Shown: piece by piece, positions 470-19,810 of the stretch
How the letters are laid out: each line of letters opens with the position of its first letter
Position numbering within the stretch: the first letter of the stretch is position 1
Origin: Candidatus Limnocylindria bacterium
GTDB lineage: Bacteria > Chloroflexota > Limnocylindria > QHBO01
NCBI GenBank assembly: GCA_038250515.1
Contig: JBBSCG010000002.1
Coordinates: 4,825-68,824, forward strand
Length of the DNA stretch: 64,000 bases
Direction: 5' to 3'
Made by a program: the position numbers and the translations under genes
The notes under the pieces: model-generated
What the model was told of the DNA's origin: nothing
The model's input: the letters and a program-made list of their open reading frames with translations, nothing else
Databases searched by the model: none

Positions 470-483
470 CGGCGCCAGGCACG

Positions 484-2595
484 ATGTTCATTCCTCGCAC
501 GCTCGCGCAGATCGATGGCGGACCCGGACGCGGCGCCGTGCTTCGCGCCATCTTCGTCGGTGGGCTCTTGACCTTGGCCCTGTTCGCCATCCTGGCCGCG
601 CCGATCATTCCCGGGCAGGTCAGCCTGCAGGTCGGTGACGTCGCCGGTGAGGACATTCGGGCACCGCGCAGCATTTCGTTCATCTCGGACAGCCAGACCG
701 CCGCCGCGCAGCAGGAAGCTGCCGGCATGGTCGCGTCGGTGTACGACGCCATTCGACCGTTGGCCGATATCCGGGCCGACCAGTTGGCTGCCTACGATCG
801 GCTCGCCAGCCAGATTCACGGCGTCCTCGAGCGTGGGGCCGCCGACGGGCTGACCGCCGTCCAGATCGGGCCACAGCTGCGCAGCGCCGTGCCGACGCTC
901 ACCCAATCGCAGGTCGATCAGATCGCCGCGATGTCCGTTGTGCGCTGGGAGTCGGTCGCCGACGCGGCACGGATGGCGCTCGACGGGATCTACGCCGGAC
1001 AGATACGCGAGGACGAGCTGAGCGACGCGCGCCAGCAGGTGCGCAACAACGTCACCGAGGAGCTCAGCCAGAAGGACCGTGAGCTGGCAGGGGACCTCGC
1101 GGCGCAGAACGTGGTGCCCACAAGCGCAATCAGCGCGGACAAGACGGCGCAGGCGCAGCAGAAAGCGCGCGACGCGGTCGAGCCGGTCATCGTCAACGTC
1201 GCCGAGGGTTCCGTCGTCGTCCGTGACGGCGATGAGGTCACGCAGCAGCACATCGAGAAGTTGGAGCAGCTTGGCCTGACCGGGCCACGCGCCAACAACG
1301 CCGCGCTGCTCGGCAACGCCCTGGTCGCCGCGCTCATCGCCGCTCTGATCGTCGGCTTCCTGTGGCGCTTCCAACCCGAGCTGTGGCATCGCAACCGTTC
1401 GCTGCTGCTGTTCATGCTCTCCCTGGTGGTGACCGCCATCGCCATGCGGGTCGCGGCGGATCGAACGCTGTGGACGTTCGCGGTGCCGACCTCTGCGACG
1501 GTCCTGCTGGTTGGTCTGCTGCTCGGCGGTCCGGCGGGCGCGGCGGTGGCCACCGCGCTGGCGGTGCTCGCCGGCGTCATGAACCGCGGAGCGCTGGAGC
1601 CATCGGTCTATGTCCTGGCCGGTGGCGTGGCGTCGCTGCTGGCGATCGTGCGCGCGGAGCGGCTGAACGCCTTCCTGCGCGCCGGCGTGCTGGTGGCGGC
1701 CAGCAACGTCCTGGTCACGGTTGCCTTCAGCCTGCTGAACCAGCGGGACGTGGCTGCCGTGCTGCAGGGGAGCGCCGCGGGCGCGGTCAACGCGGGGCTA
1801 TCAGTCTTCCTGGCGGTTGGATCCTTCGCCGTCCTGGGCAACCTGTTCGGAATCATGACCATCTTCCAGTTGCTCGAGCTTGCCAATCCCTCCTCGCGGC
1901 TGCTGCGTCGCCTGCTGCTCGAGACGCCGGGCACCTATCACCACAGCGTCATGGTCGGCAACCTCGCCGAGCGCGCCGCGGAGACGATCGGTGCCGACCC
2001 GCTGCTCGCCCGCGTGGCGGCCTATTACCACGACATCGGCAAGATGAAGAATCCGTTGGCCTTCATCGAGAACCAGGCCGGCGCGCGCAACATTCATGAC
2101 GACCTGAGCGCCGAGACGAGTGCGCGGATCATCGCCAGCCACATTCGCGATGGGATCGACCTTGGCTACGAGTACGGGCTGCCGGTGCAGATCATCGGCT
2201 TCATTCCGCAGCATCACGGTACAAGCGTGATGAGCTACTTCTACGGCAAGGCGTTGCGCGAGGTGGGCGGCAACGACGAGCTCGTCGACGAGGACACCTT
2301 CCGCTATCCGGGACCGAAGCCGCAGAGCCTCGAGGCGGCGATTCTGATGCTTTCCGACGGCGTCGAGGCCAGCGTCCGCTCACTCGACGACAAGGACGAG
2401 GCGTCGATCCGCGTGATGGTCAGCCGCATCGTCGACGCCCGCGTCGAGGATGGGCAGCTCGACGACGCCGACCTGACGCTCAAGAACATCGCCCAGATCA
2501 AGGAAGCGTTTGTCCAGCAGCTGCTGGGCATGTATCACCAGCGCATCAAGTATCCGGACAACGTGGTGCCACTCGAGCGACGAGAACAGGCCTAG
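484..2595 (+). CDS. pgpH: 7TM-HD membrane phosphohydrolase (PgpH/YqfF-like, cyclic-di-AMP phosphodiesterase family)
   Basis: 703 aa. Extracellular N-domain, multi-pass hydrophobic core, and a C-terminal HD domain (YHHSVMVGNLAE...AAYYHDIGK...IPQHHGT). Confidence 0.85.
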   Translation: MFIPRTLAQIDGGPGRGAVLRAIFVGGLLTLALFAILAAPIIPGQVSLQVGDVAGEDIRAPRSISFISDSQTAAAQQEAAGMVASVYDAIRPLADIRADQLAAYDRLASQIHGVLERGAADGLTAVQIGPQLRSAVPTLTQSQVDQIAAMSVVRWESVADAARMALDGIYAGQIREDELSDARQQVRNNVTEELSQKDRELAGDLAAQNVVPTSAISADKTAQAQQKARDAVEPVIVNVAEGSVVVRDGDEVTQQHIEKLEQLGLTGPRANNAALLGNALVAALIAALIVGFLWRFQPELWHRNRSLLLFMLSLVVTAIAMRVAADRTLWTFAVPTSATVLLVGLLLGGPAGAAVATALAVLAGVMNRGALEPSVYVLAGGVASLLAIVRAERLNAFLRAGVLVAASNVLVTVAFSLLNQRDVAAVLQGSAAGAVNAGLSVFLAVGSFAVLGNLFGIMTIFQLLELANPSSRLLRRLLLETPGTYHHSVMVGNLAERAAETIGADPLLARVAAYYHDIGKMKNPLAFIENQAGARNIHDDLSAETSARIIASHIRDGIDLGYEYGLPVQIIGFIPQHHGTSVMSYFYGKALREVGGNDELVDEDTFRYPGPKPQSLEAAILMLSDGVEASVRSLDDKDEASIRVMVSRIVDARVEDGQLDDADLTLKNIAQIKEAFVQQLLGMYHQRIKYPDNVVPLERREQA

Positions 2596-2631
2596 ACCGA
2601 TGCGCCCCCGGTCGCCTACGATGGTTCGACC

Positions 2632-3219
2632 ATGGGCTGCGCCGTCACTATCCACGATCGCATCGGTCACGAGCGACTGGCGCTCGCGGTCGAGCCACTC
2701 TCGGTCGAGGCGGCCTCTGGCCTGCTCCAGTCCGCGATCGCCGAGACGACGCGAGCCGCCGCCAGCGTGAGCGGCTGCGAGGTGGAGCTCACGTTATGCG
2801 GCGACACCGAGATGGAGCGCCTGAACTTCGACCACATGGGTGAGCGTGGCCCGACCGACGTCCTCTCGTTTCCACTGCACGAGTGGTTCGTCGACGACGG
2901 TCGCTCGCACCTGACCGATGACGACGGCATCTCACCACCGGGACCGATGATGCTCGGTGACGTGGTGATCGACGTGGACCAGGCGGTTCGCCAGGCAGCC
3001 GAAGGGTCGTGGAGCGTTCCTGAGGAGCTCGTCCTGCTGGTCATCCACGGCACGCTGCACCTGCTCGGGCATGACCACGCGGAGCTCGACGACGAGACGC
3101 AGATGCGGCGCGTCGAGCACGAGGTGCTCCGGACGCTGCATCGCAAGCATCACGAGATCACGTGGCAGCCCGGATCGCTGTTCGATCGGGCGGGGCACGC
3201 CGTCACCACGGGCAGCTGA
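2632..3219 (+). CDS. ybeY: rRNA maturation endoribonuclease YbeY
   Basis: PTDVLSFPL and the zinc motif HGTLHLLGHDH. The position after pgpH is canonical. Start is the first start codon in frame, and the N-terminus is somewhat long. Confidence 0.85.
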   Translation: MGCAVTIHDRIGHERLALAVEPLSVEAASGLLQSAIAETTRAAASVSGCEVELTLCGDTEMERLNFDHMGERGPTDVLSFPLHEWFVDDGRSHLTDDDGISPPGPMMLGDVVIDVDQAVRQAAEGSWSVPEELVLLVIHGTLHLLGHDHAELDDETQMRRVEHEVLRTLHRKHHEITWQPGSLFDRAGHAVTTGS

Positions 3220-3297
3220 GCGTTAGCCGCCAGGCTCGCCCAGAAGTCGCTCGACGAGGATCACATCGTGTTTCATCGAGCAGCTCCTCGCGTTCGT

Positions 3298-3375
3298 TCA
3301 GCATGCCCCATCGGCGGGCGCCGCGATCCAGGTGATGAGCAGGGCGGCGAAGATGAGCAGTGCGGCAACGACCAT
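3298..3375 (-). CDS. possible 25-aa hydrophobic micropeptide (MVVAALLIFAALLITWIAAPADGAC)
   Basis: My own translation; too short for the ORF track. The ATG is preceded by AAAGGGGATTGACCG (GGGGA Shine-Dalgarno about 8 nt upstream), 16 nt after the amt stop on the same strand. Confidence 0.25.
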   Translation of the reverse strand: MVVAALLIFAALLITWIAAPADGAC

Positions 3376-3390
3376 CGGTCAATCCCCTTT

Positions 3391-4611
3391 CTACAGTTGG
3401 TAGGCAATCTCGCCGTGCTGGGCAAGGTCGAGTCCGGTCTCCTCGGCTTGGCTGGCGACGCGGACGGGCACGATGAAATTGATGACGAGCAGGATGACGG
3501 TGGTGGCGACCGCCGAATAGATCGCCACCACCCCAACGGCGAACGCCTGGATGGCGAGCTGCGGCAGCCCGCCGTCGCGTCCCGCCGGATTCAGCGCCGC
3601 GGAGGCAAGGAGGCCGGTGGCCAGCGCCCCGAACGCGCCTCCCACCCCGTGGATCGCGAAGACGTCGAGCGCGTCGTCGACGCGTGAGCGCAGGCGCAGC
3701 TGCGTGGCCCCGTAGCACAGCACACCCACGCCGAAGCCGATCAGGATCGAGGCCGCCGGCGAGACATAGCCCGCGGCCGGCGTGATGGCCACCAGCCCGG
3801 CGACGGCTCCAACCGCCGCTCCGAGCACCGACGGCGTGCCGCGGTGCAGCCACGAGATGGTGACCCAGGTGAGCGCCGCCATGGCCGCGGCCGTGTTGGT
3901 TGTGACCAGCGCCAGAGCGGCGACGCCATTGGCCCCGAGCGCCGAGCCGGCGTTGAAGCCGAACCAGCCGAACCAGAGGAGGGCGGCGCCCAGGACGGTC
4001 ATCGTCACGTCATGCGGCTCCGTCGTCTGGCGAACCACGCCCAGCCGTCGCCCGACCACCAGCGCGGCGACCAGCGCCGCCACGCCCGACGAGAGGTGGA
4101 CGACGGTCCCGCCGGCGAAATCCAGCACGCCGAGGTGGGCGAGCCAGCCGTCGGGCGACCAGACCCAATGGGCGATCGGCGCATAGACGAGCGTGGACCA
4201 GGCCACACTGAAGAGGACGAACGCCTTGAATCGCTTGCGCTCGGCGAACGCGCCGGTGATCAGCGCCGGCGTGATGATCGCGAACATCATCTGGAAGGCC
4301 ATGAAGGCCAGGTGCGGGACGGTTGGCGCGTAGGTCGACGAGGGTGCTCCGGTCACGCCCTCCAGCCCTGCCCAGTCGAGGCGGCCGATGAGACCCAGAC
4401 CGGCATCGGGCCCGAAGGCCAGTGAGTAGCCCCACAGCACCCAGGTGACACTCACCAGGGCCAGGATGAAGAAGCTGTGCATGATCGTCGACAGCACGTT
4501 CTTGCGCCGCACCAGGCCGCCATAGAAGAAGGCGAGGCCAGGTGTCATGAGCATGACCATCGCCGTGGAGATCAGAATCCAGGCGGTGTCCCCTGCGTTG
4601 ATGGCACCCAT
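3391..4611 (-). CDS. amt: ammonium transporter (Amt/MEP family)
   Basis: 406 aa, about 11 TM segments. Amt signatures present (GLAFFYGGLVR, FQMMFAIITPALITGAFAER, DFAGGTVVH, DALDVFAIHGVGG). Confidence 0.92.
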   Translation of the reverse strand: MGAINAGDTAWILISTAMVMLMTPGLAFFYGGLVRRKNVLSTIMHSFFILALVSVTWVLWGYSLAFGPDAGLGLIGRLDWAGLEGVTGAPSSTYAPTVPHLAFMAFQMMFAIITPALITGAFAERKRFKAFVLFSVAWSTLVYAPIAHWVWSPDGWLAHLGVLDFAGGTVVHLSSGVAALVAALVVGRRLGVVRQTTEPHDVTMTVLGAALLWFGWFGFNAGSALGANGVAALALVTTNTAAAMAALTWVTISWLHRGTPSVLGAAVGAVAGLVAITPAAGYVSPAASILIGFGVGVLCYGATQLRLRSRVDDALDVFAIHGVGGAFGALATGLLASAALNPAGRDGGLPQLAIQAFAVGVVAIYSAVATTVILLVINFIVPVRVASQAEETGLDLAQHGEIAYQL

Positions 4612-10196: not shown

Positions 10197-11336
10197 TCAG
10201 GCGTGCGCCGGCTCCGTCTCGGGGTCGACGTCGAGCGTTTCGCGCAGTTGCAGCTGGCGCATCACCGCGGCGCGGGTGAGCATCCCGACGAATTCATGGC
10301 CGTCGAGGACGGGCACCTGCTCGAGGTCGTGCCCGGTGAGCGCCTCGACCGCCTCGTCGAGCATCTGCTGCGGTCGGACGCTGATCAGCCCGTCGCGGCC
10401 ACCCATGACCTGTCCCACCGGTGTCGACGCGCGCTTGTCGGGCGCCACCTTGCTGATGTCGCCGAGCGTGACGATACCCACCACCCGTCCGTTGTCGGCG
10501 ACCGGCATGGCGCGTCGATTGCGCGGCAACAGGTGGTCCTCGATCAGCTCGGCCACGCTCGTTCCCGGCATCACGGCGGTCGTGTCGCGGCTCATGACCG
10601 ACTCCACCGGGACGTCGCGCAGGCGCTCCTCGAGCACGACCTGCTTGAGGCTGGACGAGGCCGCGTTCTGAAGGAACCAGCCGATCGCCGCGATCCACAG
10701 CCCGTTGATCAGGTTCCCGCCGAAGACCTGCAGGATGCCCCACAGGATGAAGAGGCCGCCGACGATCTGCCCGGCGCCGACCGCGATCTCGGTCGCCTTG
10801 CGCAGGCTGTGCGTCAGGCCCCAGGCGATCGAGCGCAGTACGCGGCCGCCATCGAGTGGAAAGCCGGGGATCAGGTTGAAGCCACCGAGCAACGCATTGA
10901 CCACCGCGAGGTAGCCGAAGAGCGCCGCCAGGCGCGCATCGGTCATGACGAAGGCGATGGCAACGGCAACTGCGGCGATGACGAAGCTTGCGATCGGCCC
11001 CACGACGGCGACGAGGAACTCGGTCTTGGCGTTCTTCGGCTCGCTGGCAAGGTTCGAAACGCCGCCGAAGATGAACAGGGTGATGGAGCTGACCTCGATA
11101 CCCCGGGCACGTGCCACGAACGAGTGCGACAGCTCGTGCACCAGGACCGATCCGAAGAGCAACAGGGTGGCGACCGCCGCCAGGACCCAGGCAGCCGTCC
11201 GATCCAGGTTCGGGATGGTGGTCGGAAAGTAGCCAACGGCCAGCGACCAGGTCAGCAGCGCGAAGATCACCAGCCAGCTGATATGGATGCCGATGTCGAT
11301 GCCGCCGACGCTGAACAGCCTGAACGAGTTTTTCAC
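10197..11336 (-). CDS. site-2 (M50) metalloprotease with tandem CBS domains
   Basis: HELSHSF zinc motif, GFPLDGGR motif, and a C-terminal CBS pair. Start moved to the GTG at 11336 because AAGGAG lies 7 nt upstream. The track ORF runs to 11570. Confidence 0.85.
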   Translation of the reverse strand: MKNSFRLFSVGGIDIGIHISWLVIFALLTWSLAVGYFPTTIPNLDRTAAWVLAAVATLLLFGSVLVHELSHSFVARARGIEVSSITLFIFGGVSNLASEPKNAKTEFLVAVVGPIASFVIAAVAVAIAFVMTDARLAALFGYLAVVNALLGGFNLIPGFPLDGGRVLRSIAWGLTHSLRKATEIAVGAGQIVGGLFILWGILQVFGGNLINGLWIAAIGWFLQNAASSSLKQVVLEERLRDVPVESVMSRDTTAVMPGTSVAELIEDHLLPRNRRAMPVADNGRVVGIVTLGDISKVAPDKRASTPVGQVMGGRDGLISVRPQQMLDEAVEALTGHDLEQVPVLDGHEFVGMLTRAAVMRQLQLRETLDVDPETEPAHA

Positions 11337-11496
11337 GGCACTCCTTTCACACCGACTCGATGAGCAGATGGTCGTGCTCATTGTGCCTCGCGGCGTATAC
11401 TGGATGCACTCTCGACCCGGGACGGGCGCACCCGTCCGGCGCCGACCTACCCCAGAGCTGCACCTCGACGCGCGGCTGACGAAGGAGGCGCTTCCC

Positions 11497-14373
11497 GTGA
11501 GCAATCGTCCCCCCATCGATCCGACCGATGCGCGCGACACCTTGCGCGTCGCGGATCGGTCGTACGGCATCTACCGTCTCGATGCCACAGGCGCGGACCT
11601 CGGCCGGCTGCCGTACACCGTCAAAGTGCTGCTCGAGAACATGCTGCGCCACGCCGCGCGTGGCGACGGGCTGGTGACCGGCAACGATGTGCAGGCGCTC
11701 GCCGCCTGGGACCCGGCGCAGCCCGCCGAGTACGAGCTGCCGTTCATGCCATCGCGCGTTATCCTGCAGGACTTCACCGGCGTTCCGTGCGTCGTGGACC
11801 TCGCGGCGATGCGCGACGCCATGGCGCAGATGGGCGGCGATCCCGGTCGGATCAACCCACTGGTGCCCGCCGACCTGGTCATCGACCACAGCGTTCAGGT
11901 CGATATGTTCGGCTCGGACAGCGCGTTCGCCATCAACGTCGAGCGCGAGTACGAACGCAATGGCGAGCGCTACGCCCTGCTGCGATGGGCACAGCAGGCA
12001 TTCGGCGACTTCCGCGTCGTGCCGCCCGGCACCGGGATCGTGCACCAGGTCAACCTTGAGTTCCTCGCATCCGTCGTCGCCGCGCGCAAGGGCCAGGATG
12101 GCGTCGAGTACGCCTTCCCCGACACGCTGGTCGGTACCGATTCGCACACCACCATGGTCAACGGCCTCGGCGTCGTCGGCTGGGGCGTGGGCGGCATCGA
12201 GGCCGAGGCGGCGCTGCTTGGTCAGCCGCTCTACCAGCCGATGCCGATCGTGGTCGGCTTCCGCCTCGATGGCGAGATGCCGTCCGGATCGACCGCCACC
12301 GACCTCGTGCTGTACGTGACCGAGATGCTGCGCGCGCATGGCGTGGTCGGCAAGTTCGTCGAGTTCCACGGACCGGGCCTGTCGAAGCTCGGCCTGGCGG
12401 ACCGCGCCACGATCTCCAACATGTCGCCCGAATTCGGCGCGACTGCGACCCTGTTCCCGGTCGACGACGAGACGCTGCGCTACCTGGCCATGACCGGCCG
12501 GCCGGCCGACGTCCTAGCGCGCGTCGAGGCGTACACCAAGGAACAGGGCCTCTTCCGGACGGATGCCACGCGGGATCCCGTTTTCAACGAGTCGCTGAGC
12601 ATGGATCTCGGCGAGGTGCGTCCATCGGTCGCCGGTCCCAAGCGTCCGCAGGACCGCGTGGCGCTCACCGAGCTGCGCGACAGCTTCCGCGGCCTCTTCC
12701 CGAATGGCCTGCATACCCATGACGAGGTCGGCGAAGTGCACGACATGCCGCAACGCCGCCACGTGGACGAGGTGCAGGAGGCTTCCCAGGAGTCGTTCCC
12801 GGCCAGCGATCCGCCCGGCTGGACCAAGGATGGCGCCGAGGGCAACAACGCTGTCAGCTCGCCACGCATCGAGCCCGGCACCGTCCCGGCCGGCGCGCAT
12901 TACCGCTCATGCGAGATCGAGCTTGATGGAGAGCGCATGCGGCTGCGCAGCGGGTCGGTCGTCATCGCCGCGATCACGTCGTGCACCAACACCAGCAACC
13001 CGAACGTGATGGTCGCCGCGGGTCTGCTCGCCCAGAAGGCGGTTGGGCGCGGGCTGCGGGTGCCGCCCTACGTCAAGACCTCGCTCGCGCCCGGATCGCG
13101 CGCGGTGACCGACTACCTGGACGCCGCCGGCCTGACCGATCCGTTGAACACGCTCGGCTTCAACCTGGTGGGCTACGGCTGCACGACCTGCATCGGTAAT
13201 TCAGGGCCGCTGGCCGAGTCGATCGCCGAGGCCATCGAGGCCGAGGAGCTGACCGGCGTGGCCGTGCTGTCGGGCAACCGAAACTTCGAGGGCCGCATCC
13301 ATCCCCACGCTCGGGCCAGCTATTTGGCCTCGCCGCCGTTGGTGGTGGCATTCGCGCTGGCCGGACGCATCGACATCGATCTCAGCAGCGAGCCGCTGGG
13401 CATCGGTTCGGACGGACGCGAGGTCTTCCTGTCGGACCTGTGGCCGTCTCCGGCCGAGGTCGCCCGCGTCATCGCAGAGCGCGTCAGCTCCGAGATCTTC
13501 GTGCGCAACTACGCCAGCGTGTTCGACGGTGATGACCGATGGCGCTCACTGCCGGTCCCTCCGGGGGACCGCTATGCGTGGGACCCGGACTCGACCTATG
13601 TCGCACTGCCGCCGTTCTTCGAGGGACTCTCGCCGGAGCCACAGCCGGTGACCGATGTCGTCGACGCGCGCGTGCTGGCGATGTTGGGCGACTCGGTGAC
13701 CACCGACCACATCAGCCCGGCGGGGGCGATTGCGCGCACCTCGCCAGCCGGGCGCTGGCTTACCGAGCACGGCGTCGAGCTGCGTGACTTTAACTCGTAC
13801 GGGTCTCGCCGAGGCCACCACGAGGTAATGATGCGCGGCACGTTCGCCAACCTTCGGCTGCGCAACGCGCTGACGCCCGACGCGGAGGGCAATCTGACCG
13901 AGCACCTGCCGACGGGGGAGCGGATGTCCATCTTCGACGCCGCCATGCGCTACGTGGAAGATGGCATCCCGACCGTCATCCTTGCGGGCAAGGAGTATGG
14001 CTCCGGCTCATCGCGTGACTGGGCCGCCAAGGGGCCGTATCTTCAGGGCGTTCGTGCGGTGATTGCCGAGTCGTACGAGCGCATCCATCGGGCGAACCTG
14101 GTGGGCATGGGCGTGCTGCCGCTGCAGTACCTGCCCGGTGAGACGGGCGGGTCGCTGGGTCTGACCGGCCGCGAGACGTTCACCATCCATGGCCTGAGTG
14201 ACACTCTGCGGCCGCACCAGGAGCTGACGGTCAGCGTTCGGTCCGAAGAGGGCGTCAAGCGTTCGTTCCGGGTGGCGGTTCGGCTGGATGGGGCGATCGA
14301 TGTCGAGTACTACCGCAACGGCGGCGTGCTGCAGACCGTGCTGCGGCGTCTGGCGCGCGAGGGATCGGCCTGA
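11497..14373 (+). CDS. acnA: aconitate hydratase A
   Basis: LPYTVKVLLENMLR, GTDSHTTM, ITSCTNTSNP and GCTTCIGNSGPL Fe-S ligand motifs, plus the swivel domain. Start placed at the GTG at 11497 behind GAAGGAGG. Confidence 0.93.
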   Translation: MSNRPPIDPTDARDTLRVADRSYGIYRLDATGADLGRLPYTVKVLLENMLRHAARGDGLVTGNDVQALAAWDPAQPAEYELPFMPSRVILQDFTGVPCVVDLAAMRDAMAQMGGDPGRINPLVPADLVIDHSVQVDMFGSDSAFAINVEREYERNGERYALLRWAQQAFGDFRVVPPGTGIVHQVNLEFLASVVAARKGQDGVEYAFPDTLVGTDSHTTMVNGLGVVGWGVGGIEAEAALLGQPLYQPMPIVVGFRLDGEMPSGSTATDLVLYVTEMLRAHGVVGKFVEFHGPGLSKLGLADRATISNMSPEFGATATLFPVDDETLRYLAMTGRPADVLARVEAYTKEQGLFRTDATRDPVFNESLSMDLGEVRPSVAGPKRPQDRVALTELRDSFRGLFPNGLHTHDEVGEVHDMPQRRHVDEVQEASQESFPASDPPGWTKDGAEGNNAVSSPRIEPGTVPAGAHYRSCEIELDGERMRLRSGSVVIAAITSCTNTSNPNVMVAAGLLAQKAVGRGLRVPPYVKTSLAPGSRAVTDYLDAAGLTDPLNTLGFNLVGYGCTTCIGNSGPLAESIAEAIEAEELTGVAVLSGNRNFEGRIHPHARASYLASPPLVVAFALAGRIDIDLSSEPLGIGSDGREVFLSDLWPSPAEVARVIAERVSSEIFVRNYASVFDGDDRWRSLPVPPGDRYAWDPDSTYVALPPFFEGLSPEPQPVTDVVDARVLAMLGDSVTTDHISPAGAIARTSPAGRWLTEHGVELRDFNSYGSRRGHHEVMMRGTFANLRLRNALTPDAEGNLTEHLPTGERMSIFDAAMRYVEDGIPTVILAGKEYGSGSSRDWAAKGPYLQGVRAVIAESYERIHRANLVGMGVLPLQYLPGETGGSLGLTGRETFTIHGLSDTLRPHQELTVSVRSEEGVKRSFRVAVRLDGAIDVEYYRNGGVLQTVLRRLAREGSA

Positions 14374-14375
14374 GC
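14368..14375. repeat. left target-site duplication GCCTGAGC
   Basis: Identical 8-mer at 19192-19199, directly abutting the other TIR. Contains the acnA stop codon. Confidence 0.75.
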
Positions 14376-14394
14376 GGTAGTGCATCAGTTTGAG
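14376..14394. repeat. left terminal inverted repeat GGTAGTGCATCAGTTTGAG
   Basis: Exact reverse complement of 19173-19191. The match can be extended to 21 bp if it overlaps the duplication. Confidence 0.8.
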
Positions 14395-16043
14395 TCGAAC
14401 AGCCCAGCCTGCTCCGCCGCCTTCTTGATCGGCTGAGCCTGCTGGTAGGGCGACAGGACGAGCAGCGGCAGGTTGGGCTTTCGGTCCTCTTCGAGCAGCT
14501 CACGGATCGTGATGATCTGGACGGCCGGATAGTCACGCCCCGACAAATCGGAGTGGTAGAAGCCTGCTTCCGTCGCCTCTAGGCGCATCGGACCTGTCGG
14601 CTCTTCCAGCGTGACGAACAAGCCCATTACCGCGCCCTGGGCGCCAATGTCGCCCTTTAGTTCAGCGACCTGGCCACGGCCCACGTGGCCGGATTTCACG
14701 CTCACGATGCAGCTTTCGAGCTTGCCGCCTGCCCCGGTGAAGGTGATGACCCCATCTACGCCTTTATCGGCCCCCTTCTTCTGAGTGCCGCCTACGGGCA
14801 TTGCACCGACGAGCGTAAGCGCCCAAAGCTCGAACTGCTCTCGTCCATTCGGAAGTTGCTGCGCGAGCTTTCTCGCGCCCTCGACCTCAGTGGGCGAACC
14901 CTCGATGGGAACCACGATCCCGAAACTGTCGCGTAGCCGCGCCTGCATCACCGCAATGGCGAGATAGGTAACGTCGATCCCGATCCATCGCCGTCCTAGT
15001 TTCTGAGCAGCTACGACCGCCGTGCCGCATCCGCAAAATGGATCGAGCACAAGGTCGCCCGGTTTTGACGAGGACCTGATGACCCTCTCTAGCAGAGCTA
15101 ACGGTTTTTGAGTCGGATAGCCGAGGCGCTCGTTGCCGTCGACCTGCTCGATGTCGGTCCAGAGATTAGAAACAGTGCGACCCTTGGAATCGCCCAAGTA
15201 CTTCTTGTACTGCGGAATGGCGCCCGGTTTCGTCTGGACGACTAGGCCGCTGGCGTATGCGTCGGCCATCCTCTCCTTCGTCCAGCGCCAGACGCGCGTC
15301 ACGCCCAGGAACTCATAGGTGAGGTTCGGTCGGTCCTTGTTCGGATTTAGCAACGGGAGTAGGCGGTATCGACCCCCGTCATCTACGTGCCGGTACGCGG
15401 TTTCTACGTACTTCGGATCGTGCGTCTCATATGGCTGACGGAAGAAGGCCCGAGCAGACGCCGTGTACCGCAGGAGACTGTCAGTCACATTTGCGAAATT
15501 GGCGGACCCAAGGCTCTTAGGGTTTGACCGGCGCCAGATGATTTCGTTGCCAAACCGTTCTGGCCCGAAGATCGAGTCCAGAATCAGCTTCAGGTAGTGA
15601 CTCGCAGTGGGGTCGCAGTGAAGATAGAGCGAGCCGGACCGTTTCAAGACCCGATGCAGTTCGACAAGGCGAACAGCCATTTCCACCAGATAGGCGAGCA
15701 TCGGACTCGGCCTGATTCCCTTATGGAATGCTCCGATGAGGTCGCTCACCGTGCTCGGCACCCGGCCACCGTGATACCCGCTGTTCGTCAGGTACAGGTA
15801 TTGCGTTTCCGCGTCCGGCCCCCAATGCCAAGTGTCATCGAAGGCCGTGATTTGGGCATCGCTTCTCTGTCCGGATTCGTCGCGGAAGATGACGTTGTAG
15901 GCGGCGTTGCTGTTGAAGGGTGGGTCCAGGTAGATGAGGTCCACCGACTCCGGCGGGATGTAGGGCGGATCGTGACGCAGGATGTCGAGGTTGTCCCCGT
16001 AGTAGAGGACGTTGGTCTGCACGCCCCGAGCGTACCAGCCCAT
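14385..16043 (-). CDS. N6/N4 DNA methyltransferase (beta class, DPPF) fused to an Mrr-cat-like restriction-endonuclease domain
   Basis: IYLDPPFNSN (motif IV), then VLDPFCGCGTAVVAAQKLGRRWIGID (motif I). The C-terminal ~150 aa (KKGADKGVDGVITF...IVSVKSGHV) resembles an Mrr catalytic domain. The last three codons and the stop lie inside the left TIR. Confidence 0.85.
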   Translation of the reverse strand: MGWYARGVQTNVLYYGDNLDILRHDPPYIPPESVDLIYLDPPFNSNAAYNVIFRDESGQRSDAQITAFDDTWHWGPDAETQYLYLTNSGYHGGRVPSTVSDLIGAFHKGIRPSPMLAYLVEMAVRLVELHRVLKRSGSLYLHCDPTASHYLKLILDSIFGPERFGNEIIWRRSNPKSLGSANFANVTDSLLRYTASARAFFRQPYETHDPKYVETAYRHVDDGGRYRLLPLLNPNKDRPNLTYEFLGVTRVWRWTKERMADAYASGLVVQTKPGAIPQYKKYLGDSKGRTVSNLWTDIEQVDGNERLGYPTQKPLALLERVIRSSSKPGDLVLDPFCGCGTAVVAAQKLGRRWIGIDVTYLAIAVMQARLRDSFGIVVPIEGSPTEVEGARKLAQQLPNGREQFELWALTLVGAMPVGGTQKKGADKGVDGVITFTGAGGKLESCIVSVKSGHVGRGQVAELKGDIGAQGAVMGLFVTLEEPTGPMRLEATEAGFYHSDLSGRDYPAVQIITIRELLEEDRKPNLPLLVLSPYQQAQPIKKAAEQAGLFDSN

Positions 16044-16130
16044 CAGTCCAGCAGCGCTGCGATTTCCTCGCAGGTCCAGATGTGGTCGGCAACGCCTGCC
16101 AGCCGGGGTCCGCGCGGAGGGCGGGTCAGG
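16043..16130 (-). pseudogene. relic 3' end of a second IS1-like transposase copy
   Basis: Translates to ...PRGPRLAGVADHIWTCEEIAALLD*, against ...PRTPAMAAGVADHIWTCEEIAALLD* at the end of the intact transposase (17002-). Its TGA overlaps the methyltransferase ATG (TGATG). Confidence 0.55.
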
Positions 16131-16401
16131 GCGAGTGGTCGTGTCCCCTTGCCGCTAGATACTCTGGCTGACCCTTAGAGCAATCGGCCAGCTCGCGGAA
16201 GAGCGCCAGTGGTATCCCCAGTTGCCGCGCCATGTCCGACTCGCGGTGGCCGATCTCTTGTCCCTTCGCGCCATGTGACAGATGCGTGCGACCGAAGGTC
16301 TCCCCGCACTCTGGACAGGAGATATAGAAGAACTGATGGTCTCGGTTCTCCTCGTCGTCAGTGAGTTTCCTGACTCCCCGTTCGGCCTCGCGGCGCTTCA
16401 C
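16126..16401 (-). CDS. hypothetical 91-aa protein (single CPEC motif; weak HicA-like/HTH-like C-terminal segment)
   Basis: ORF coupled by a 4-nt overlap to the upstream HicB-like gene. THLSHGAKGQEIGHRESDMARQLGI loosely resembles the HicA core. No firm family call. Confidence 0.45.
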   Translation of the reverse strand: MKRREAERGVRKLTDDEENRDHQFFYISCPECGETFGRTHLSHGAKGQEIGHRESDMARQLGIPLALFRELADCSKGQPEYLAARGHDHSP

Positions 16402-16706
16402 TCGGCAAACAGGAACCGAAGCCGCTGCAACTCCAGTCGCATGTCGGCACTGAGCTTCGCCTCGCGGGTCTGTAGTCCCTTGAGCGAGATGTGCAGATGG
16501 GTGACGAGGTCATTGATCGCCGCCTCTGGCGTGACACCTTCTCCGAAGATGCCCGAGTGCTTGTCCGTTGCGACAACACCGTCTGCAACAGGCTCGACAT
16601 TCACTTGGAGTTGCCCGCCGGGCAGGATGAGGACCAAGGCCTCACGCCGTTCCGGCGTAGGCGCGACTAGCGACTTCTCGAACGTCGTCTGATTCGTGAT
16701 AGTCAC
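16398..16706 (-). CDS. HicB-like (UPF0150) antitoxin-fold protein
   Basis: 102 aa. ...VATDKHSGIFGEGVTPEAAINDL... matches the HicB/UPF0150 pattern (xGxGxTxEEAxxNL). GTGA overlap with the upstream ORF. Confidence 0.5.
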   Translation of the reverse strand: MTITNQTTFEKSLVAPTPERREALVLILPGGQLQVNVEPVADGVVATDKHSGIFGEGVTPEAAINDLVTHLHISLKGLQTREAKLSADMRLELQRLRFLFAE

Positions 16707-16990
16707 TTGTCGCCCTCCTCTATTTTGGACGCACGGTCAGGAAGTGATGACAGGCCGCGCTTAATATTGTCGGCCATCGCTTCGGCCAATTCGGACGTCA
16801 TGCGGACTCGGCAGACGATACGCCCTGCCGTAACATTGGTCGGCGCGGCATCGGGGTCGCTCAAGATGAACGTACAGGCGATTCCGAATGTTCCAGTGCT
16901 GACTCTCACCCCATCGGCAAAGATGTCAGGGAACTCTGGCTCTGTCACTGAGCCGATAGTCTTGCACAAGTCGTCAATGCGCTCGGGCAC
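16703..16990 (-). CDS. DUF3467-like small protein
   Basis: FADGVRVSTGTFGIACTFILSD...AGRIVCRVRMTSELAEAMADNIKRGL resembles the DUF3467 pattern as I recall it. Start uncertain: GTG at 16990 chosen to avoid overlap with the transposase, while the track gives 17032. Confidence 0.4.
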   Translation of the reverse strand: MPERIDDLCKTIGSVTEPEFPDIFADGVRVSTGTFGIACTFILSDPDAAPTNVTAGRIVCRVRMTSELAEAMADNIKRGLSSLPDRASKIEEGDK

Positions 16991-17001
16991 CCGCAGCCCG
17001 C

Positions 17002-17877
17002 TTAGTCGAGGAGTGCCGCGATCTCCTCGCACGTCCAGATGTGATCCGCCACGCCCGCGGCCATCGCCGGGGTCCGAGGATACGGGTTGGCGAGGGACCG
17101 ATGGGTTCGCGCGAAGTTGTAGTGAAGATGCTGTAGGGCCACGGCCGCGGCATGATTGCGGACCTTCTTGCTGAAGGCATTGGTCAGTCGGGTGAAGCGT
17201 CGGCTGCTCATCCGCAGGGTCAGGTTGCTGCGCTCGACGTAGGAAGTCGAGATGCGCGCCGGGTCGGGATCGCCCTGGATCACGCGGACCTCCATGCTGG
17301 TGCAGACCTGCGGGCTGTACTTACGGGCCTGCGGAACTTCCGCGCCTTCGCCGCCTTCCGTCCCATAGCTCTTGATGAGCATCGCGTAGTCAACGTCCCG
17401 GCCGAACTCCGTTTCGATGGCCTCTTGGTACGGCTTGTGGCCGTCCGTGGTGATCTGCACCCGGTTGGCGAGGCGGCTGCCCAGATCGGCGATGAACTCG
17501 CGGGCTGCGATCTCGTCGCGCGGGCCGACCAGCCATGCCGGGATGAGCTTGGTATCGGCGTCAATTGCGATCCAGGTCCATACGTCGCCGTAGCCGAACT
17601 CACCAGCGTGCTTCTCGGGGACGTTGCGCGCCTTGGCATGGACGAAGGCCCAAATCTCATCGCACTCGATCCGGGTCGCGGTCAGATTGCGCAGCGTCCG
17701 GCTCTGGTACTCAGTCGCCGCGTCGCCTAGCTCGACCAGCAGCTTCATGATCGTGTTCTGCGCGAAGCCGGTCATGCGGTTGATTGAGCGGATCGAGTTG
17801 CCCTCGACCAGCATGCCGATGATCCTCGCCCGTTCCTGCCTGCTCAACCGGTTCATACTGCGATGATGCTTGAGCAT
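17002..17877 (-). CDS. IS1-family DDE transposase (single-ORF type)
   Basis: N-terminal HTH (LSRQERARIIGMLVEGNSIRSINRMTG), CDEIWAFV, ITTDGHKPY, and SYVERSNLTLRMSSRRFTRLTNAFSKK...HYNF: IS1-like motifs. An alternative start is MNRLS at 17856. Confidence 0.85.
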   Translation of the reverse strand: MLKHHRSMNRLSRQERARIIGMLVEGNSIRSINRMTGFAQNTIMKLLVELGDAATEYQSRTLRNLTATRIECDEIWAFVHAKARNVPEKHAGEFGYGDVWTWIAIDADTKLIPAWLVGPRDEIAAREFIADLGSRLANRVQITTDGHKPYQEAIETEFGRDVDYAMLIKSYGTEGGEGAEVPQARKYSPQVCTSMEVRVIQGDPDPARISTSYVERSNLTLRMSSRRFTRLTNAFSKKVRNHAAAVALQHLHYNFARTHRSLANPYPRTPAMAAGVADHIWTCEEIAALLD

Positions 17878-17941
17878 CGTGACAACAGTCTGTCGCGATG
17901 CTTGAGCACCTCAGAATCGCAGCGTGTATACTTTGGGCCGG

Positions 17942-18011
17942 TGGTGGAGCGCACGGGAATCGAACCCGTCAGGGGAGGATGGTAAGCCCGTCCTGGCGAC
18001 CTGCGCGCCCC
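17942..18011 (-). other. tRNA-like element (acceptor stem, perfect T-arm, discriminator A, encoded CCA; core too short for a normal tRNA)
   Basis: The minus strand reads GGGGCGC-35 nt-ACGGGTTCGATTCCCGT-GCGCTCC-A-CCA. The 7-bp acceptor stem has one G-U pair. The T-loop is canonical (TTCGATT). The 35-nt middle cannot form both D and anticodon arms. Confidence 0.5.
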
Positions 18012-18018
18012 ACCGCTT

Positions 18019-18816
18019 CTAATCGGCGGCTTTGCGGCCTCCCTTTGCTGCCATCCCAAGCAGCTCTTCGATCTTCGCCATGAGCGCCGGATCGGGTTCG
18101 CCCTTCTGACGGAGCAACCCGATGAGTGCGCTGATGTACTCGCTCTCCAGGCTGTCCTTCGTCCGTGTTTCGGTGGGCGGTTGAGTCCGGCCACCATCGT
18201 CCCCGCTGCCTCCGCCACCATCTGCGGGGTTGACAGCGGGTGGCGGTTCAGCAGCCGGGGATACGGACCCGACGCGGGGGATGATGAGTTGGGTGCGGCC
18301 GCCTCGCGTCGAGAAGAATCCGGCCTGGTCGGCAGAGTCCATCAAGGCCCGATAGGCGTCGTCGAGCCGGCTCGGAGTGATCCCATAGCGCGTGCGGAAC
18401 GCATTCTTCATACCGAAGTCTGATGGGAGCTGCTTCCCGTGGTTATCGTCGTAAACGACTCGGAACAGAGGAACGCTTAGGAACGCTTCGGTCATTGCCC
18501 TCCGAGCATCTTCGGGAAACTCGGGCATAAGGATCATCTGCGCGCGAGGCGTGATCGTGATCCGGTCGCCCTGGCCCGCGATTAGGTCAAACGTCCGCGC
18601 GGACGCGATGCGCGCGAGATACGCTCCATTCTTGGAGGAACGGTATCCAAGGTAGGCGGCTAGCTGATCGTTGCTGGCTACCCCGCCTCCCTTGTCATGC
18701 ACGGCCTTGGCAACTGCAACCGAATCAAGGAGTGAGTAGACGGGGAACTTGGTCTTGGATAGCTCGCGCTTGCGAGGCGGCGTGACGGCCTCGGGCATTC
18801 GCTTGGGCTCGGCCAT
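18019..18816 (-). CDS. hypothetical protein, probable N-terminal winged-helix domain, Gly/Pro-rich linker, helical C-terminus
   Basis: 265-aa ORF with GGAGGG 7 nt upstream of the ATG. No family recognised. Confidence 0.6.
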   Translation of the reverse strand: MAEPKRMPEAVTPPRKRELSKTKFPVYSLLDSVAVAKAVHDKGGGVASNDQLAAYLGYRSSKNGAYLARIASARTFDLIAGQGDRITITPRAQMILMPEFPEDARRAMTEAFLSVPLFRVVYDDNHGKQLPSDFGMKNAFRTRYGITPSRLDDAYRALMDSADQAGFFSTRGGRTQLIIPRVGSVSPAAEPPPAVNPADGGGGSGDDGGRTQPPTETRTKDSLESEYISALIGLLRQKGEPDPALMAKIEELLGMAAKGGRKAAD

Positions 18817-18888
18817 CTTGCGGCCCTCCGTTACGGATTGGCAGTAACTCGCTGTACTGGCGAACCGTAAACTAGAACCGCAACAGTG

Positions 18889-19125
18889 TCAACCTTGACT
18901 CACACCCCACCGCGCCTGAGCCGCCTTCCGCGCAATCTCGCTCCGCTGCTCGGGGCTGAGTTTCGCCGCTCGGGCCTTCCCGCCCTTTAGCCCGCCACGT
19001 CGCCCCAGCTCGACCGCCATCGGGTCCTTCACCCGCTCCGGTTGAGGTTTGGCTTCACCAAGGAACGCGTCCAGCGTGGCCTTCGCCCGTTGATTCACGT
19101 CGCGCGGCATCTTCTGCTTCTTCAC
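18889..19125 (-). CDS. small basic protein with KGGKARAAKLSPEQRSEIARKAAQARW motif
   Basis: 78-aa ORF (GTG start, or MPRDV at 19110). I recognise this C-terminal motif from small mobile-element or toxin-antitoxin-associated proteins of unknown function. Confidence 0.45.
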   Translation of the reverse strand: MKKQKMPRDVNQRAKATLDAFLGEAKPQPERVKDPMAVELGRRGGLKGGKARAAKLSPEQRSEIARKAAQARWGVSQG

Positions 19126-19172
19126 CGCTCAAGCATGCGCCTGCGCGGAGCGGCTCGTCAACCGGGAGGCGG

Positions 19173-19191
19173 CTCAAACTGATGCACTACC
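19173..19191. repeat. right terminal inverted repeat CTCAAACTGATGCACTACC
   Basis: Exact reverse complement of 14376-14394. Confidence 0.8.
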
Positions 19192-19199
19192 GCCTGAGC
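19192..19199. repeat. right target-site duplication GCCTGAGC
   Basis: Identical to 14368-14375. Confidence 0.75.
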
Positions 19200-19237
19200 G
19201 CTTACATGGACGGCGGCGGTGCATCGGTCTAGACTCA

Positions 19238-19810
19238 GTGGTCGAACTCGCCAAGCCAGATGGCTGGAGTGCCCACCACGTGACGACCAGCACCGTCGAT
19301 GACCTGCGCGCCAAGATCCGTGAGGTCCCGGACTTTCCGAAGCCGGGGATCCTGTTCTACGACATCACGACCCTGCTAAAGGATGCCCATGCCTTTGCCG
19401 AGGTGATCGACCAGATGGCCGATCAGGTGAAGGGCTCGCAGGTCGATCTGGTGGTGGGCATGGAGTCGCGCGGGTTCATTTTCAGCGCGCCGCTCGCCTA
19501 CAAGCTGGACGCAGGGTTCGTCCCGGTGCGCAAGCTCGGGAAGCTGCCGGCCGAGACGCTCGAGGTCGAGTACGCACTTGAGTACGGCACGGCGACGCTC
19601 GAGATCCATCGCGACGCGATCCAGGCCGGGCAGCGAGTGCTCATCGTGGATGATCTGCTGGCCACGGGAGGCACGGTGATGGGCACCATCGAGCTGGTGC
19701 GGCGGCTGGGTGGCGAGATCGCCGGCCTGTCGTTCATGGTCGAGCTGACGGCGCTCCACGGGCGCGACCAGCTCGCCGAGTTCCAGATCAACACGCTCCT
19801 CACCTACTGA
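19238..19810 (+). CDS. apt: adenine phosphoribosyltransferase
   Basis: FPKPGILFYDITTLL, and the PRPP motif VLIVDDLLATGGT. Confidence 0.92.
   Translation: MVELAKPDGWSAHHVTTSTVDDLRAKIREVPDFPKPGILFYDITTLLKDAHAFAEVIDQMADQVKGSQVDLVVGMESRGFIFSAPLAYKLDAGFVPVRKLGKLPAETLEVEYALEYGTATLEIHRDAIQAGQRVLIVDDLLATGGTVMGTIELVRRLGGEIAGLSFMVELTALHGRDQLAEFQINTLLTY

Follow-up and report, generated by a model that had tools for sequence, protein, structure and literature searches.

A stretch of 64,000 nucleotides from a soil Chloroflexota, a Candidatus Limnocylindria bacterium (contig JBBSCG010000002.1; hereafter the window), carries a segment of lower GC content between the genes acnA and apt. We conclude that this segment, 14376-19191 (4816 bp), is very probably a single transposable unit: an insertion sequence (IS) of the IS1 family that transports passenger genes, that was fused from two elements, and that landed at this site through a preference for a hexamer lying 7 bp beyond its duplicated target. 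In the mechanism that we propose, a DDE transposase encoded by a single open reading frame (ORF; 17002-17856) would recognize two identical 19-bp ends, the target would be cut with an 8-bp stagger and the element joined in, and repair would then yield the flanking duplication GCCTGAGC. A preference for placing the element edge 7 bp from TTGAC(A/G) would have brought it into the acnA-apt spacer, where acnA and the apt promoter were both spared.

The unit is delimited by a perfect 19-bp terminal inverted repeat, GGTAGTGCATCAGTTTGAG, which reads forward at 14376-14394 and returns as its exact reverse complement at 19173-19191 (19/19 positions matching), and by the 8-bp direct repeat GCCTGAGC, which adjoins both ends on the outside (14368-14375 and 19192-19199). 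An earlier reading of this DNA, made from the sequence only, had placed the repeats at these coordinates, and they are not a product of chance: a search for the 19-mer allowing up to 3 mismatches returned just these two matches in the window, and 0 of 100 shuffles gave any. No further end sequence was detected inside or near the element, even with 6 mismatches allowed. The lower GC content reported for the interior was likewise confirmed (61.8%, compared with 68.5% for the rest of the window), and same-size windows elsewhere never fell below 67.1%.

Relatives of the element were sought on contigs with close transposase homologues, in 80 metagenome loci (of 439), and on two plasmids from cultured alphaproteobacterial hosts (p_1 of Mesorhizobium loti and one of Hoeflea sp.). 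This sample contained 45 related elements with both ends, 2.2-5.0 kb in length, from Chloroflexota metagenomes and metagenome-assembled genomes (MAGs) as well as from the Mesorhizobium and Hoeflea plasmids; a bare IS of ~1.2 kb was not found among them. Their ends follow the consensus GGTAGTG-nn-TCA-R-TTTGA, and 37 of the 45 have duplications of their own, all different in sequence (exact 8-bp in 35, 9-bp in 2). These relatives settle the boundary of the window copy, which is ambiguous when considered alone because the match between its two ends continues with 'GC' into the duplication (24 nt, 96%): ends in the group always begin GGTAGTG, and exact 8-bp duplications accompany 35 of the 45. The 19-mer is thus not a generic dispersed repeat, as the sequence-only reading had considered it might be, and instead is the end of an element family, each member with its own site and its own 8-bp duplication. 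IS1-family ends, as defined in ISfinder, are inverted repeats of ~20 bp that begin GGnnnTG, with duplications of 8-9 bp, and the window element has both.

Transporter ISs (tIS) of the IS1 and IS1595 families were reportedly described by Siguier, Gagnevin and Chandler in 2009. As in such elements, an IS-type transposase and inverted repeats here enclose non-transposition passengers, at least six ORFs other than the transposase and a small gene that we call ORF78, plus an RNA element, and one duplication lies outside them around the whole unit; the same arrangement was found in 37 relatives. Passenger-carrying tIS are an established concept (PMC3129680 and PMC7986276, both of which cite that work). 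The earlier count of at least six non-transposition ORFs and a tRNA-like element in the interior therefore stands as regards cargo, but the 78-aa ORF belongs to the core of the element and is not a passenger.

Alignment of the window element with four relatives left only three conserved blocks, namely the left end with ORF78 (1-287), the leader with the transposase gene, and the right end. All but one of the 45 elements (44) have ORF78 beside the left end and on the same strand, so we consider it a core gene rather than cargo. At least 8000 proteins of 73-86 aa belong to its family, some of them named 'histone H1' by NCBI, and the consensus reads ...KDPAAVELGRxGGLxGGKARAAKLTPExRSEIARKAAxARW. 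Searches with ORF78 gave no Pfam, NCBIfam or PADLOC match, no sequence match in the PDB and weak PHROG matches to families of unknown function; its AlphaFold model has three helices (pLDDT 81), for which Foldseek gave no structural match. The three blocks leave two cargo slots, one from ORF78 to the transposase leader and the other from the transposase stop to the right end. In the window, the first slot holds a 265-aa protein gene and the tRNA-like RNA, and the second holds three small ORFs and a fusion of a DNA methyltransferase to a nuclease-like domain. The methyltransferase and the 265-aa and 109-aa proteins have homologues in the corresponding slots of other elements. The 265-aa protein showed no detectable relationship to the DUF5343 proteins found in the same slot elsewhere (BLASTP not significant; hhalign probability 4.7%), and we claim no shared function for them.

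We next turn to the position of the element. For the complete elements with reconstructed targets (37 elements; 74 flanks), flanks were read outward from the duplication at offsets 0-23. TTGAC was found exactly 7 nt beyond the duplication in 20 of the 74 flanks (27 with at most 1 mismatch), compared with 0-1 at every other offset. Across all 120 ends (loci L002-L090 and the window), the motif lay at +7 in 27 cases exactly and in 37 within one mismatch, again with 0-1 exact occurrences elsewhere. The hexamer extends to TTGAC(A/G); at least one exact copy accompanies 19 of the 37 elements, 25 have one within one mismatch, and either end of an element can face it. In 14 of 27 such flanks, a hexamer of the form nAnnnT follows 16-18 nt further on, producing sigma-70-type arrangements that read away from the element (for example TTGACA-N17-CATAAT, TTGACG-N17-TACAAT and TTGACA-N16-TACAAT). 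Four different elements with different duplications (L007, L015, L051 and L075) lie before the same orthologous promoter. In metagenome Ga0315284, two elements with different cargo, L017 592-5594 (5003 bp) and L023 109-2729 (2621 bp), share one 8-bp target, CGTCCGAC, where they are inserted in opposite orientations, and both lie before the same TTGACA-N17-CATAAT promoter. Judging from these flanks, the preference of the group is for sites just upstream of -35 boxes, with the element edge 7 bp from TTGAC(A/G). The exactness of the spacing matters here, since selection for harmless insertions would not give a single offset. The hexamer may be read by the helix-turn-helix (HTH) of the transposase, by ORF78, or by a host factor at promoters.

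At the window locus, acnA (11287-14373; Pfam Aconitase and Aconitase_C) ends on a TGA (14371-14373) that falls within the left copy of the duplication, as had been noted from the sequence, and the gene is therefore intact. The stop codon is native, since the acnA of one relative ends GGTTCGGCGTGAGCG, close to the GGATCGGCCTGAGCG of the window. To the right of the element lies apt (Pfam Pribosyltran), which most likely starts at GTG 19280, within a conserved GGAG-N-GTG. Upstream of apt, the motif TTGCCG-N17/18-TAGACT is conserved in 12 related genomes and is followed by GGAG and the GTG start, which supports both the Apt start at 19280 and the presence of a promoter-like site. With this start, the gap between acnA and apt before insertion would have been ~82 nt, and not the ~45 nt estimated earlier. 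Reading outward from the left end of the element, the window has the duplication, GCTTACA, the hexamer TGGACG (7 bp out), 17 nt, and TAGACT. The apt promoter most likely accounts for the position better than the acnA stop does. Insertion exactly on the stop codon, on which the sequence-only reading had laid stress, is correct in that the TGA lies in the duplication; because the element landed 7 bp upstream of the -35-like hexamer of apt, the coincidence with the stop is probably a by-product of the +7 preference.

It could also be that the same IS1-family element reached the spacer by chance and survived there neutrally, the apt hexamer being irrelevant to target choice. The window hexamer, TGGACG, is one mismatch away from TTGAC; 12 of the 37 complete elements show no match to the hexamer at +7, even with one mismatch allowed, and the two plasmid copies (L089 and L090) also lack it. 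The element of L049, moreover, sits in an almost identical 9-mer without TTGAC, which hints at a preference for the duplicated sequence itself. Against chance stand the single offset of TTGAC (27 of 120 ends, versus 0-1 elsewhere) and the exact +7 position of the window hexamer, paired with a properly spaced and phylogenetically conserved -10-like TAGACT. We consider placement by chance unlikely, and retain the preference for promoter-proximal sites. The L049 element (65-3588) is at an unrelated locus, in the target CGCTCAGG, one base offset in the window 9-mer CGCTCAGGC (14368-14376 and 19192-19200), and its site also reads GCC-TGA at an apparent ORF end; this likeness could be a coincidence or a secondary sequence preference.

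To obtain unoccupied versions of the locus, species-representative genomes were searched with Apt, and 80 loci were returned. In ~35 related Limnocylindria MAGs, whose Apt is 77-88% identical, apt follows acnA directly and in the same orientation, with 55-136 nt between the aligned acnA and Apt protein ends in 12 of them, and the element end sequence was absent from all 80 loci. The empty site that the sequence-only reading proposed to look for is thus present in related species, in which acnA is followed directly by apt, but none from the same species was recovered. The acnA-apt spacer also varies in the clade independently of the IS: in L094, L109, L110, L114, L116, L122 and L129, 2.5-3.3 kb separate the two genes, occupied mostly by one ORF of ~780-816 aa on the opposite strand. 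These intervals were rejected as other mobile elements, given their host-like GC content (0.69-0.71), the single long ORF in most of them, and the absence of ends typical of the group.

The composite nature of the element is indicated by a remnant of a second transposase gene. The sequence-only reading had noted a single transposase inside the unit, and indeed there is one full transposase ORF; in addition, a 3' fragment of a second, diverged gene lies at ~16043-16137 and ends ...AGVADHIWTCEEIAALLD*. Within this fragment, a 55-nt direct repeat has 82% DNA identity to the 3' end of the resident gene (17004-17058), and with identity this low the fragment is not a local duplication. It is contiguous with the methyltransferase gene, and the junction is homologous to the junction between transposase end and methyltransferase in L002. 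A transposase 3' fragment preceding the methyltransferase indicates that the element is a fusion of two elements of one group, for which the following history would be the simplest. An element of the form 'transposase - methyltransferase - right end' would have joined the cargo of another element, losing most of its transposase; the right part (transposase end, methyltransferase and right end) would thus have come from a second member of the same group, and the fused element would then have transposed as a unit by its outer ends. That the fusion moved as a unit is argued by the 8-bp duplication, which abuts the outer ends.

The fragment upstream of the methyltransferase could also have arisen if the 4.8 kb had never moved as one piece, a smaller element having inserted first and a second having nested into it before partial deletion in place; nested or truncated ends are visible at other loci, such as L040 and L051. 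In-place nesting, however, would have left the right end of the first element and its remaining cargo beyond the nested copy, and no such end is present within 6 mismatches, whereas the duplication lies directly against the outermost ends, one of which is the right end that goes with the methyltransferase-bearing part. We regard nesting as very improbable and prefer a fusion that transposed whole. At the two loci just named (L040 1425-1500 and L051 1470-1545), no more than ~25 nt separate the left-end tip of one subtype from a truncated end of another that comes after it (...GCATCAGTTTGAGGGCG / ...GGTCAGTTTGAGGGCG), which suggests insertion of one element into the end of another.

The transposase places the element in the IS1 family, as anticipated from its motifs in the sequence-only reading. 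It exceeds the cut-off of Pfam DDE_Tnp_IS1 (PF03400; 35.2 bits, cut-off 24.1) over a short stretch, residues 208-245, and the NCBIfam IS1 model NF033558 is by far its best match (69.2 bits, E 4e-19). We also aligned a 16-sequence family profile with E. coli IS1A InsAB' using hhalign; the IS1A sequence used to reconstruct InsAB' agrees at 100% identity with thousands of records annotated 'IS1-like element IS1A family transposase'. The alignment (96.7% probability, E 3e-10, 167 columns, 32% identity) is colinear through the HTH, cDEiW/mDEqW, AID/AYD, TDGh..Y/TDGw..Y, vERsNL/iERhNL and FSKK/FSKS, with D, D and E aligned. At least 8000 homologues exist in databases; NCBI and JGI give the name 'IS1 family transposase' to the closest, which come from Chloroflexota and Candidatus Limnocylindria and are 282-284 aa long. 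Their length agrees with a start at ATG 17856 (284 aa), which we consider most likely in place of the 17002-17877 extent given earlier. Membership of another DDE family with similar ends and 8-bp duplications, either IS1595 (which also has 8-bp duplications and passenger-carrying members) or IS6, is scarcely credible: Pfam DDE_Tnp_IS240 is borderline (27.8 versus a cut-off of 27, over 57 residues), and NCBIfam IS6 NF033587 (33.6 bits, cut-off 125) and IS1595 NF033547 (18.2 bits, cut-off 75) fall far below their cut-offs, whereas the IS1 model scores far higher and the InsAB' alignment spans the HTH, D, D, TDG..Y, E and FSK in order. The NCBIfam IS481 model reached 21 bits.

Several features set this protein apart from InsAB'. 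A single uninterrupted ORF of 284 aa carries both the HTH and the DDE residues, with no insA/insB' -1 frameshift. The protein begins MNRLSRQERARII, without a Cys-rich motif, and its alignment starts at the InsA HTH (InsAB' residue 52), leaving no zinc finger; it also has an insertion before the catalytic E (after TDG..Y) and a C-terminal extension of ~40 aa. On these features, the transposase is best described as a divergent single-ORF member of IS1, a distant relative of InsAB'. Single-ORF subgroups exist in the IS1 family, and the insA/insB' frameshift is not universal.

A number of observations weigh against the interpretation of the unit as a mobile IS1-family tIS targeted by the hexamer. 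The NCBIfam IS1 score of 69 bits lies below the curated cut-off of 100, and the IS1 zinc finger and frameshift are missing. The hexamer in the window is imperfect, and elements without one are not rare (12/37, as above). A simple sigma-70 scan found no promoter-like site in 14300-19300, the range that includes both the left-end and the apt sites; we base these two sites on conservation and spacing, and not on the scan. The empty sites come from relatives and not from the same species. No second copy of the exact element was found at another site. What we say of the activity of the element (its current mobility included), of the pathway of fusion, of the reader of the hexamer, and of what ORF78, the tRNA-like RNA and the methyltransferase do is inferred.

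The only other record of the element is a Logan contig, SRR19962013_2502910 (L001; 4901 nt), which is 100% identical to window 14347-19247. It was the sole return when the methyltransferase and a 270-aa transposase call were used as exact-protein queries; there was no match to the transposase ORF in its 291-aa form, to Apt with either of two starts, or to the product of the next gene after apt. This contig comes from an independent short-read assembly. Its start coincides exactly with the first 31-mer that, had the sample also contained an empty acnA-apt allele, would occur only in the occupied one. Its right end fits less neatly, and we take the start as only a hint of presence/absence polymorphism.

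The tRNA-like element mentioned in the sequence-only reading is real and occupies 17942-18011 on the minus strand. A covariance model detected the window copy at 75.6 bits (E 3.5e-13). The RNA has a 7-bp acceptor stem with G3:U70, a 5-bp T stem, a UUCGAUU loop and ACCA, so that acceptor, T arm, discriminator and CCA are all in place; of the D region only an invariant GCAGGU(U)CGC is left, and the middle hairpin is variable. Homologues lie ~90-115 nt upstream of the transposase start in L005, L007, L023, L033, L044, L050, L053 and L060, and in L035 the RNA is reversed. In seven aligned copies, 93.5% of cells were paired, compared with 44-54% when partners were slid, and 11 of 22 pairs had changes on both sides. 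G1-C72, G2-C71 and G3:U70 are invariant in this alignment, and ACCA is encoded in 6 of the 7 copies (ACUA in L050). The 'anticodon' triplet is not conserved, reading UAC in the window and CUA, UUA, UAG, UGG or UGC elsewhere. The element looks derived from tRNA-Ala, and selection appears, from these substitution patterns, to act on the minihelix of acceptor and T arm and not on decoding.

Whether the RNA serves the IS at all is a closer question. It is quite possible, even if we lean the other way, that it is no more than a passenger, a tRNA-Ala gene in decay that does nothing for the element. Hardly any two copies agree in the anticodon-loop triplet, and the D arm is degenerate; ARAGORN called no tRNA in the window, no full cloverleaf being recognized, and the best Rfam match of the window copy was tRNA-Sec at 22.6 bits (gathering score 47). 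The homologue in L007 narrowly exceeds the Rfam tRNA threshold (31.9 versus 29), and ARAGORN calls it 'tRNA-Stop (tta)'. Ordinary tRNA genes do occur as cargo, in L034, L050, L057 and L084, and the tRNA-like RNA is absent from most elements of the group, being confined to a sub-lineage. Simple decay, on the other hand, would not be expected to keep the acceptor, middle and T helices by compensatory changes, G3:U70 in all aligned copies, an encoded CCA in 6/7, and a fixed position ~90-115 nt upstream of a transposase start, although the transposases differ by ~20-35% from that of the window. If the RNA is under selection for the element, it might act, a suggestion we make with low confidence, as a processing or insulating signal (e.g., an RNase P site) that sets the transposase mRNA apart from transcripts of the cargo upstream.

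G3:U70, the T arm and the A73 discriminator are features recognized by alanyl-tRNA synthetase (AlaRS). The window RNA shares with the tRNA-Ala minihelix and the tRNA-like domain of tmRNA a GGGG...CUCC-ACCA stem, G3:U70, the T arm GGGUUCGAnUCCC and the A73 discriminator, and the L023 relative has the triplet UGC in its loop. Unlike these molecules, it is ~70 nt long, has a degenerate D region, a non-conserved 'anticodon' and no mRNA-like domain, and lies upstream of a transposase gene. We know of no comparable RNA in the IS1 family, and a literature search on tRNA-like elements in ISs returned nothing relevant. A prophage or integrative-element remnant marked by a tRNA-like 3' end was considered and rejected, as there is no integrase, both acceptor strands are present, and inverted repeats and the 8-bp duplication bound the unit. 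The ordinary-looking cargo tRNA genes (L034 625-699, L050 1061-1135, L057 5378-5452, L084 2068-2140 and L009 6820-6895) are Ser-GCU, Val-GAC, Asn-GUU and one whose type was undetermined; the L050 and L009 copies lie just upstream of the transposase. A further weak covariance match in the window, at 36399-36482 (+) (21.5 bits, E 0.13), is probably due to chance.

The leader of the transposase gene is nearly invariant in five aligned elements and runs straight into ATG 17856. It contains two direct copies of (T)GCTCAAGCATC (17865-17876 and 17897-17908) that flank the near-palindrome CGCGACAGACTGTTGTCAC. These are the two copies of the 12-mer GATGCTTGAGCA to which the sequence-only reading drew attention, together with an inverted core at 19127-19136, as subterminal binding sites or a 5' duplication. 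The positions and their conservation were confirmed; the notion of a 5' duplication was not, as the direct copies are part of a conserved leader and the inverted core near the left end overlaps CATGCT, the -10 of a putative ORF78 promoter. By their placement the repeated 12-mers look like promoter or operator elements, to which the transposase or ORF78 could possibly bind. The left-end arrangement recurs in the group: TTGAC(G) lies 31-36 nt from the tip (37/45, with TTGAC at 31-32 nt), followed by a spacer of ~18 nt, CAnnnT, and the start of ORF78 6-12 nt further on. This promoter-like site would presumably drive ORF78, and the short distance from the CAnnnT hexamer to the start suggests a leaderless ORF78 mRNA.

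Compared with E. coli IS1 (IS1A), the element has a homologous DDE core and HTH, ends of the same GGT-R-R-TG form (GGTGATG in IS1A, GGTAGTG in the window), duplications of 8-9 bp, a left end that contains a promoter-like site, and beside it a small gene that precedes the catalytic ORF. IS1, in contrast, is 768 bp long, has no cargo, expresses insA/insB' by a -1 frameshift and has a zinc finger in InsA, whereas the window element is 4.8 kb long with a single 284-aa ORF, and its ORF78 has no detectable similarity to InsA. The passenger-carrying ISMhu11 subgroup has an upper length of ~4.6 kb, slightly below the 4816 bp found here; the window element is compatible with it in length and cargo and may belong to it. 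That subgroup is not known to have an ORF78, a pair of cargo slots, a tRNA-like RNA, TTGAC at +7, or cargo rich in methyltransferase, restriction, toxin-antitoxin and STAND-NTPase genes; literature searches on ISMhu11, on IS1 in Chloroflexi and on -35-directed insertion returned nothing relevant. In target choice, the group resembles Tn7 at attTn7 and yeast Ty3 upstream of Pol III genes, in that a landmark lies at a fixed distance and genes are not disrupted. It also resembles the sequence-defined hot spots of IS10 (NGCTNAGCN) and IS30, in which a short target sequence lies at a fixed distance from the joint. Unlike all four, the landmark here is a -35-like hexamer of 5-6 bp, 7 bp outside the duplication, on one side only and at either end, and no dedicated target-selector protein has been identified in the group; the resemblance is functional only.

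Taken alone, the window element is an ordinary IS with passengers, of a known kind, and its value is as an entry to a clade; the interesting part is the set of family-level features, namely ORF78, slots rich in defence-type genes, TTGAC at +7 and the alanine-type tRNA-like RNA. A Pfam census of 121 cargo ORFs from 36 elements recovered DUF5343 (8), N6_N4 methyltransferase (5, plus one N6_Mtase), XRE-type HTH (4), Peptidase_M78 (3), SocA_Panacea (2) and AAA_16, AAA_22, nSTAND or NACHT (2), with one each of dCTP-deaminase-like, ClpP-like, GNAT, PIN, BglII-type endonuclease and NYN. With methyltransferases, a restriction-modification pair, Panacea/PIN/NYN, STAND NTPases and a dCTP-deaminase-like gene in the slots, these elements may move defence genes between genomes. 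We tentatively combine these features, being close to evenly divided on whether the whole will hold, into a large clade of IS1-family tIS, apparently not described as such, with TTGAC(A/G)+7 targeting, a need for ORF78, a regulatory or processing tRNA-like RNA, and a role as a shuttle of defence modules. Were this true, a clade that is abundant in soil Chloroflexota, occurs also on alphaproteobacterial plasmids, and numbers at least 8000 homologues each of the transposase and of ORF78 would land repeatedly upstream of sigma-70-type -35 boxes while sparing genes and promoters, and would shuttle small defence, restriction-modification and toxin-antitoxin modules among soil bacteria; in one sub-lineage, an RNA of alanine identity (G3:U70) would act in processing or regulation. 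The sharp TTGAC+7 signal makes it directly testable whether a simple DDE element chooses its targets close to promoters, and the conserved RNA that precedes the transposase gene may have a part in regulation or processing.

Features of the window element and its flanks, and tRNA-like homologues at other loci
Feature	Coordinates	Strand	Basis or remark
Target-site duplication, left copy, GCCTGAGC	14368-14375	.	contains acnA stop TGA 14371-14373; 8 bp is the rule in the group
Right terminal inverted repeat (IRR), GGTAGTGCATCAGTTTGAG, distal to transposase start	14376-14394	+	stop TGA of methyltransferase ORF inside
N6/N4 DNA methyltransferase, 552 aa, fused C-terminal Mrr_cat / NA-iREase1 nuclease-like domain; passenger	14385-16043	-	Pfam, PADLOC
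3' fragment of second, diverged transposase gene, ~95 nt	16043-16137	-	stop overlaps methyltransferase ATG
Passenger ORF, 91 aa, no family match	16126-16401	-	start overlaps end of 102-aa ORF by 4 nt
Passenger ORF, 102 aa, no family match	16398-16706	-	ORF list, family scans
Passenger ORF, 109 aa	16703-17032	-	overlaps transposase 3' end; homologues just downstream of transposase in L051, L043, L055
IS1-family DDE transposase, single ORF, 284 aa, N-terminal HTH, D66 / D99 / E208, C-terminal extension, no zinc finger	17002-17856	-
Conserved transposase leader	17857-17941	-	alignment of five elements; found in 27 loci
tRNA-like RNA element	17942-18011	-	covariance model, covariation
265-aa ORF between ORF78 and transposase, no family match	18019-18816	-	homologues in same slot in L048, L017, L076, L063, L004
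ORF78, small basic protein, 78 aa, core gene adjoining left end	18889-19125	-	in 44/45 elements
Inward promoter-like site in left end: TTGACG 19156-19161, 18-nt spacer, CATGCT 19132-19137	19132-19161	-	6 nt before ORF78 GTG start
Left terminal inverted repeat (IRL), proximal to ORF78 and transposase	19173-19191	-	reverse complement of IRR
Target-site duplication, right copy, GCCTGAGC	19192-19199	.	adjoins IRL
Host apt promoter-like site: TGGACG 19207-19212, 17-nt spacer, TAGACT 19230-19235	19207-19235	+	aligned with conserved apt upstream motif
tRNA-like homologue, L005	9845-9915
tRNA-like homologue, L007	9846-9915
tRNA-like homologue, L023	1103-1175
tRNA-like homologue, L033	1050-1119
tRNA-like homologue, L044	67-138
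tRNA-like homologue, L050	1151-1223
tRNA-like homologue, L060	1111-1181
tRNA-like homologue, L035	2498-2570	-

All genes of the element are on the minus strand. In the 552-aa passenger, the methyltransferase domain is clear (Pfam N6_N4_Mtase 1e-37; PADLOC MTase_II 5e-56), and the C-terminal domain matches Mrr_cat (7e-07) and the 'inactive' NA-iREase1 (4e-07) alike, both at ~1e-7. Methyltransferase homologues occupy the same slot in L054, L050, L046, L002, L028 and L026. Among the relatives, the post-transposase slot of L005 (10882-12554; also L006), whose transposase is 85% identical to that of the window, holds a complete type II restriction-modification pair made up of an N6_N4 methyltransferase and a BglII/BamHI-like endonuclease; that of L007 holds an NYN-domain protein, and L002 has a SocA_Panacea gene pair upstream. 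Lastly, a 552-aa homologue of the methyltransferase-Mrr fusion (56% identical) lies outside the IS at L004 14664-16322, beside an AAA_15/AAA_21 ATPase gene, indicating that this cargo gene exists in a non-IS, defence-island-like context as well.

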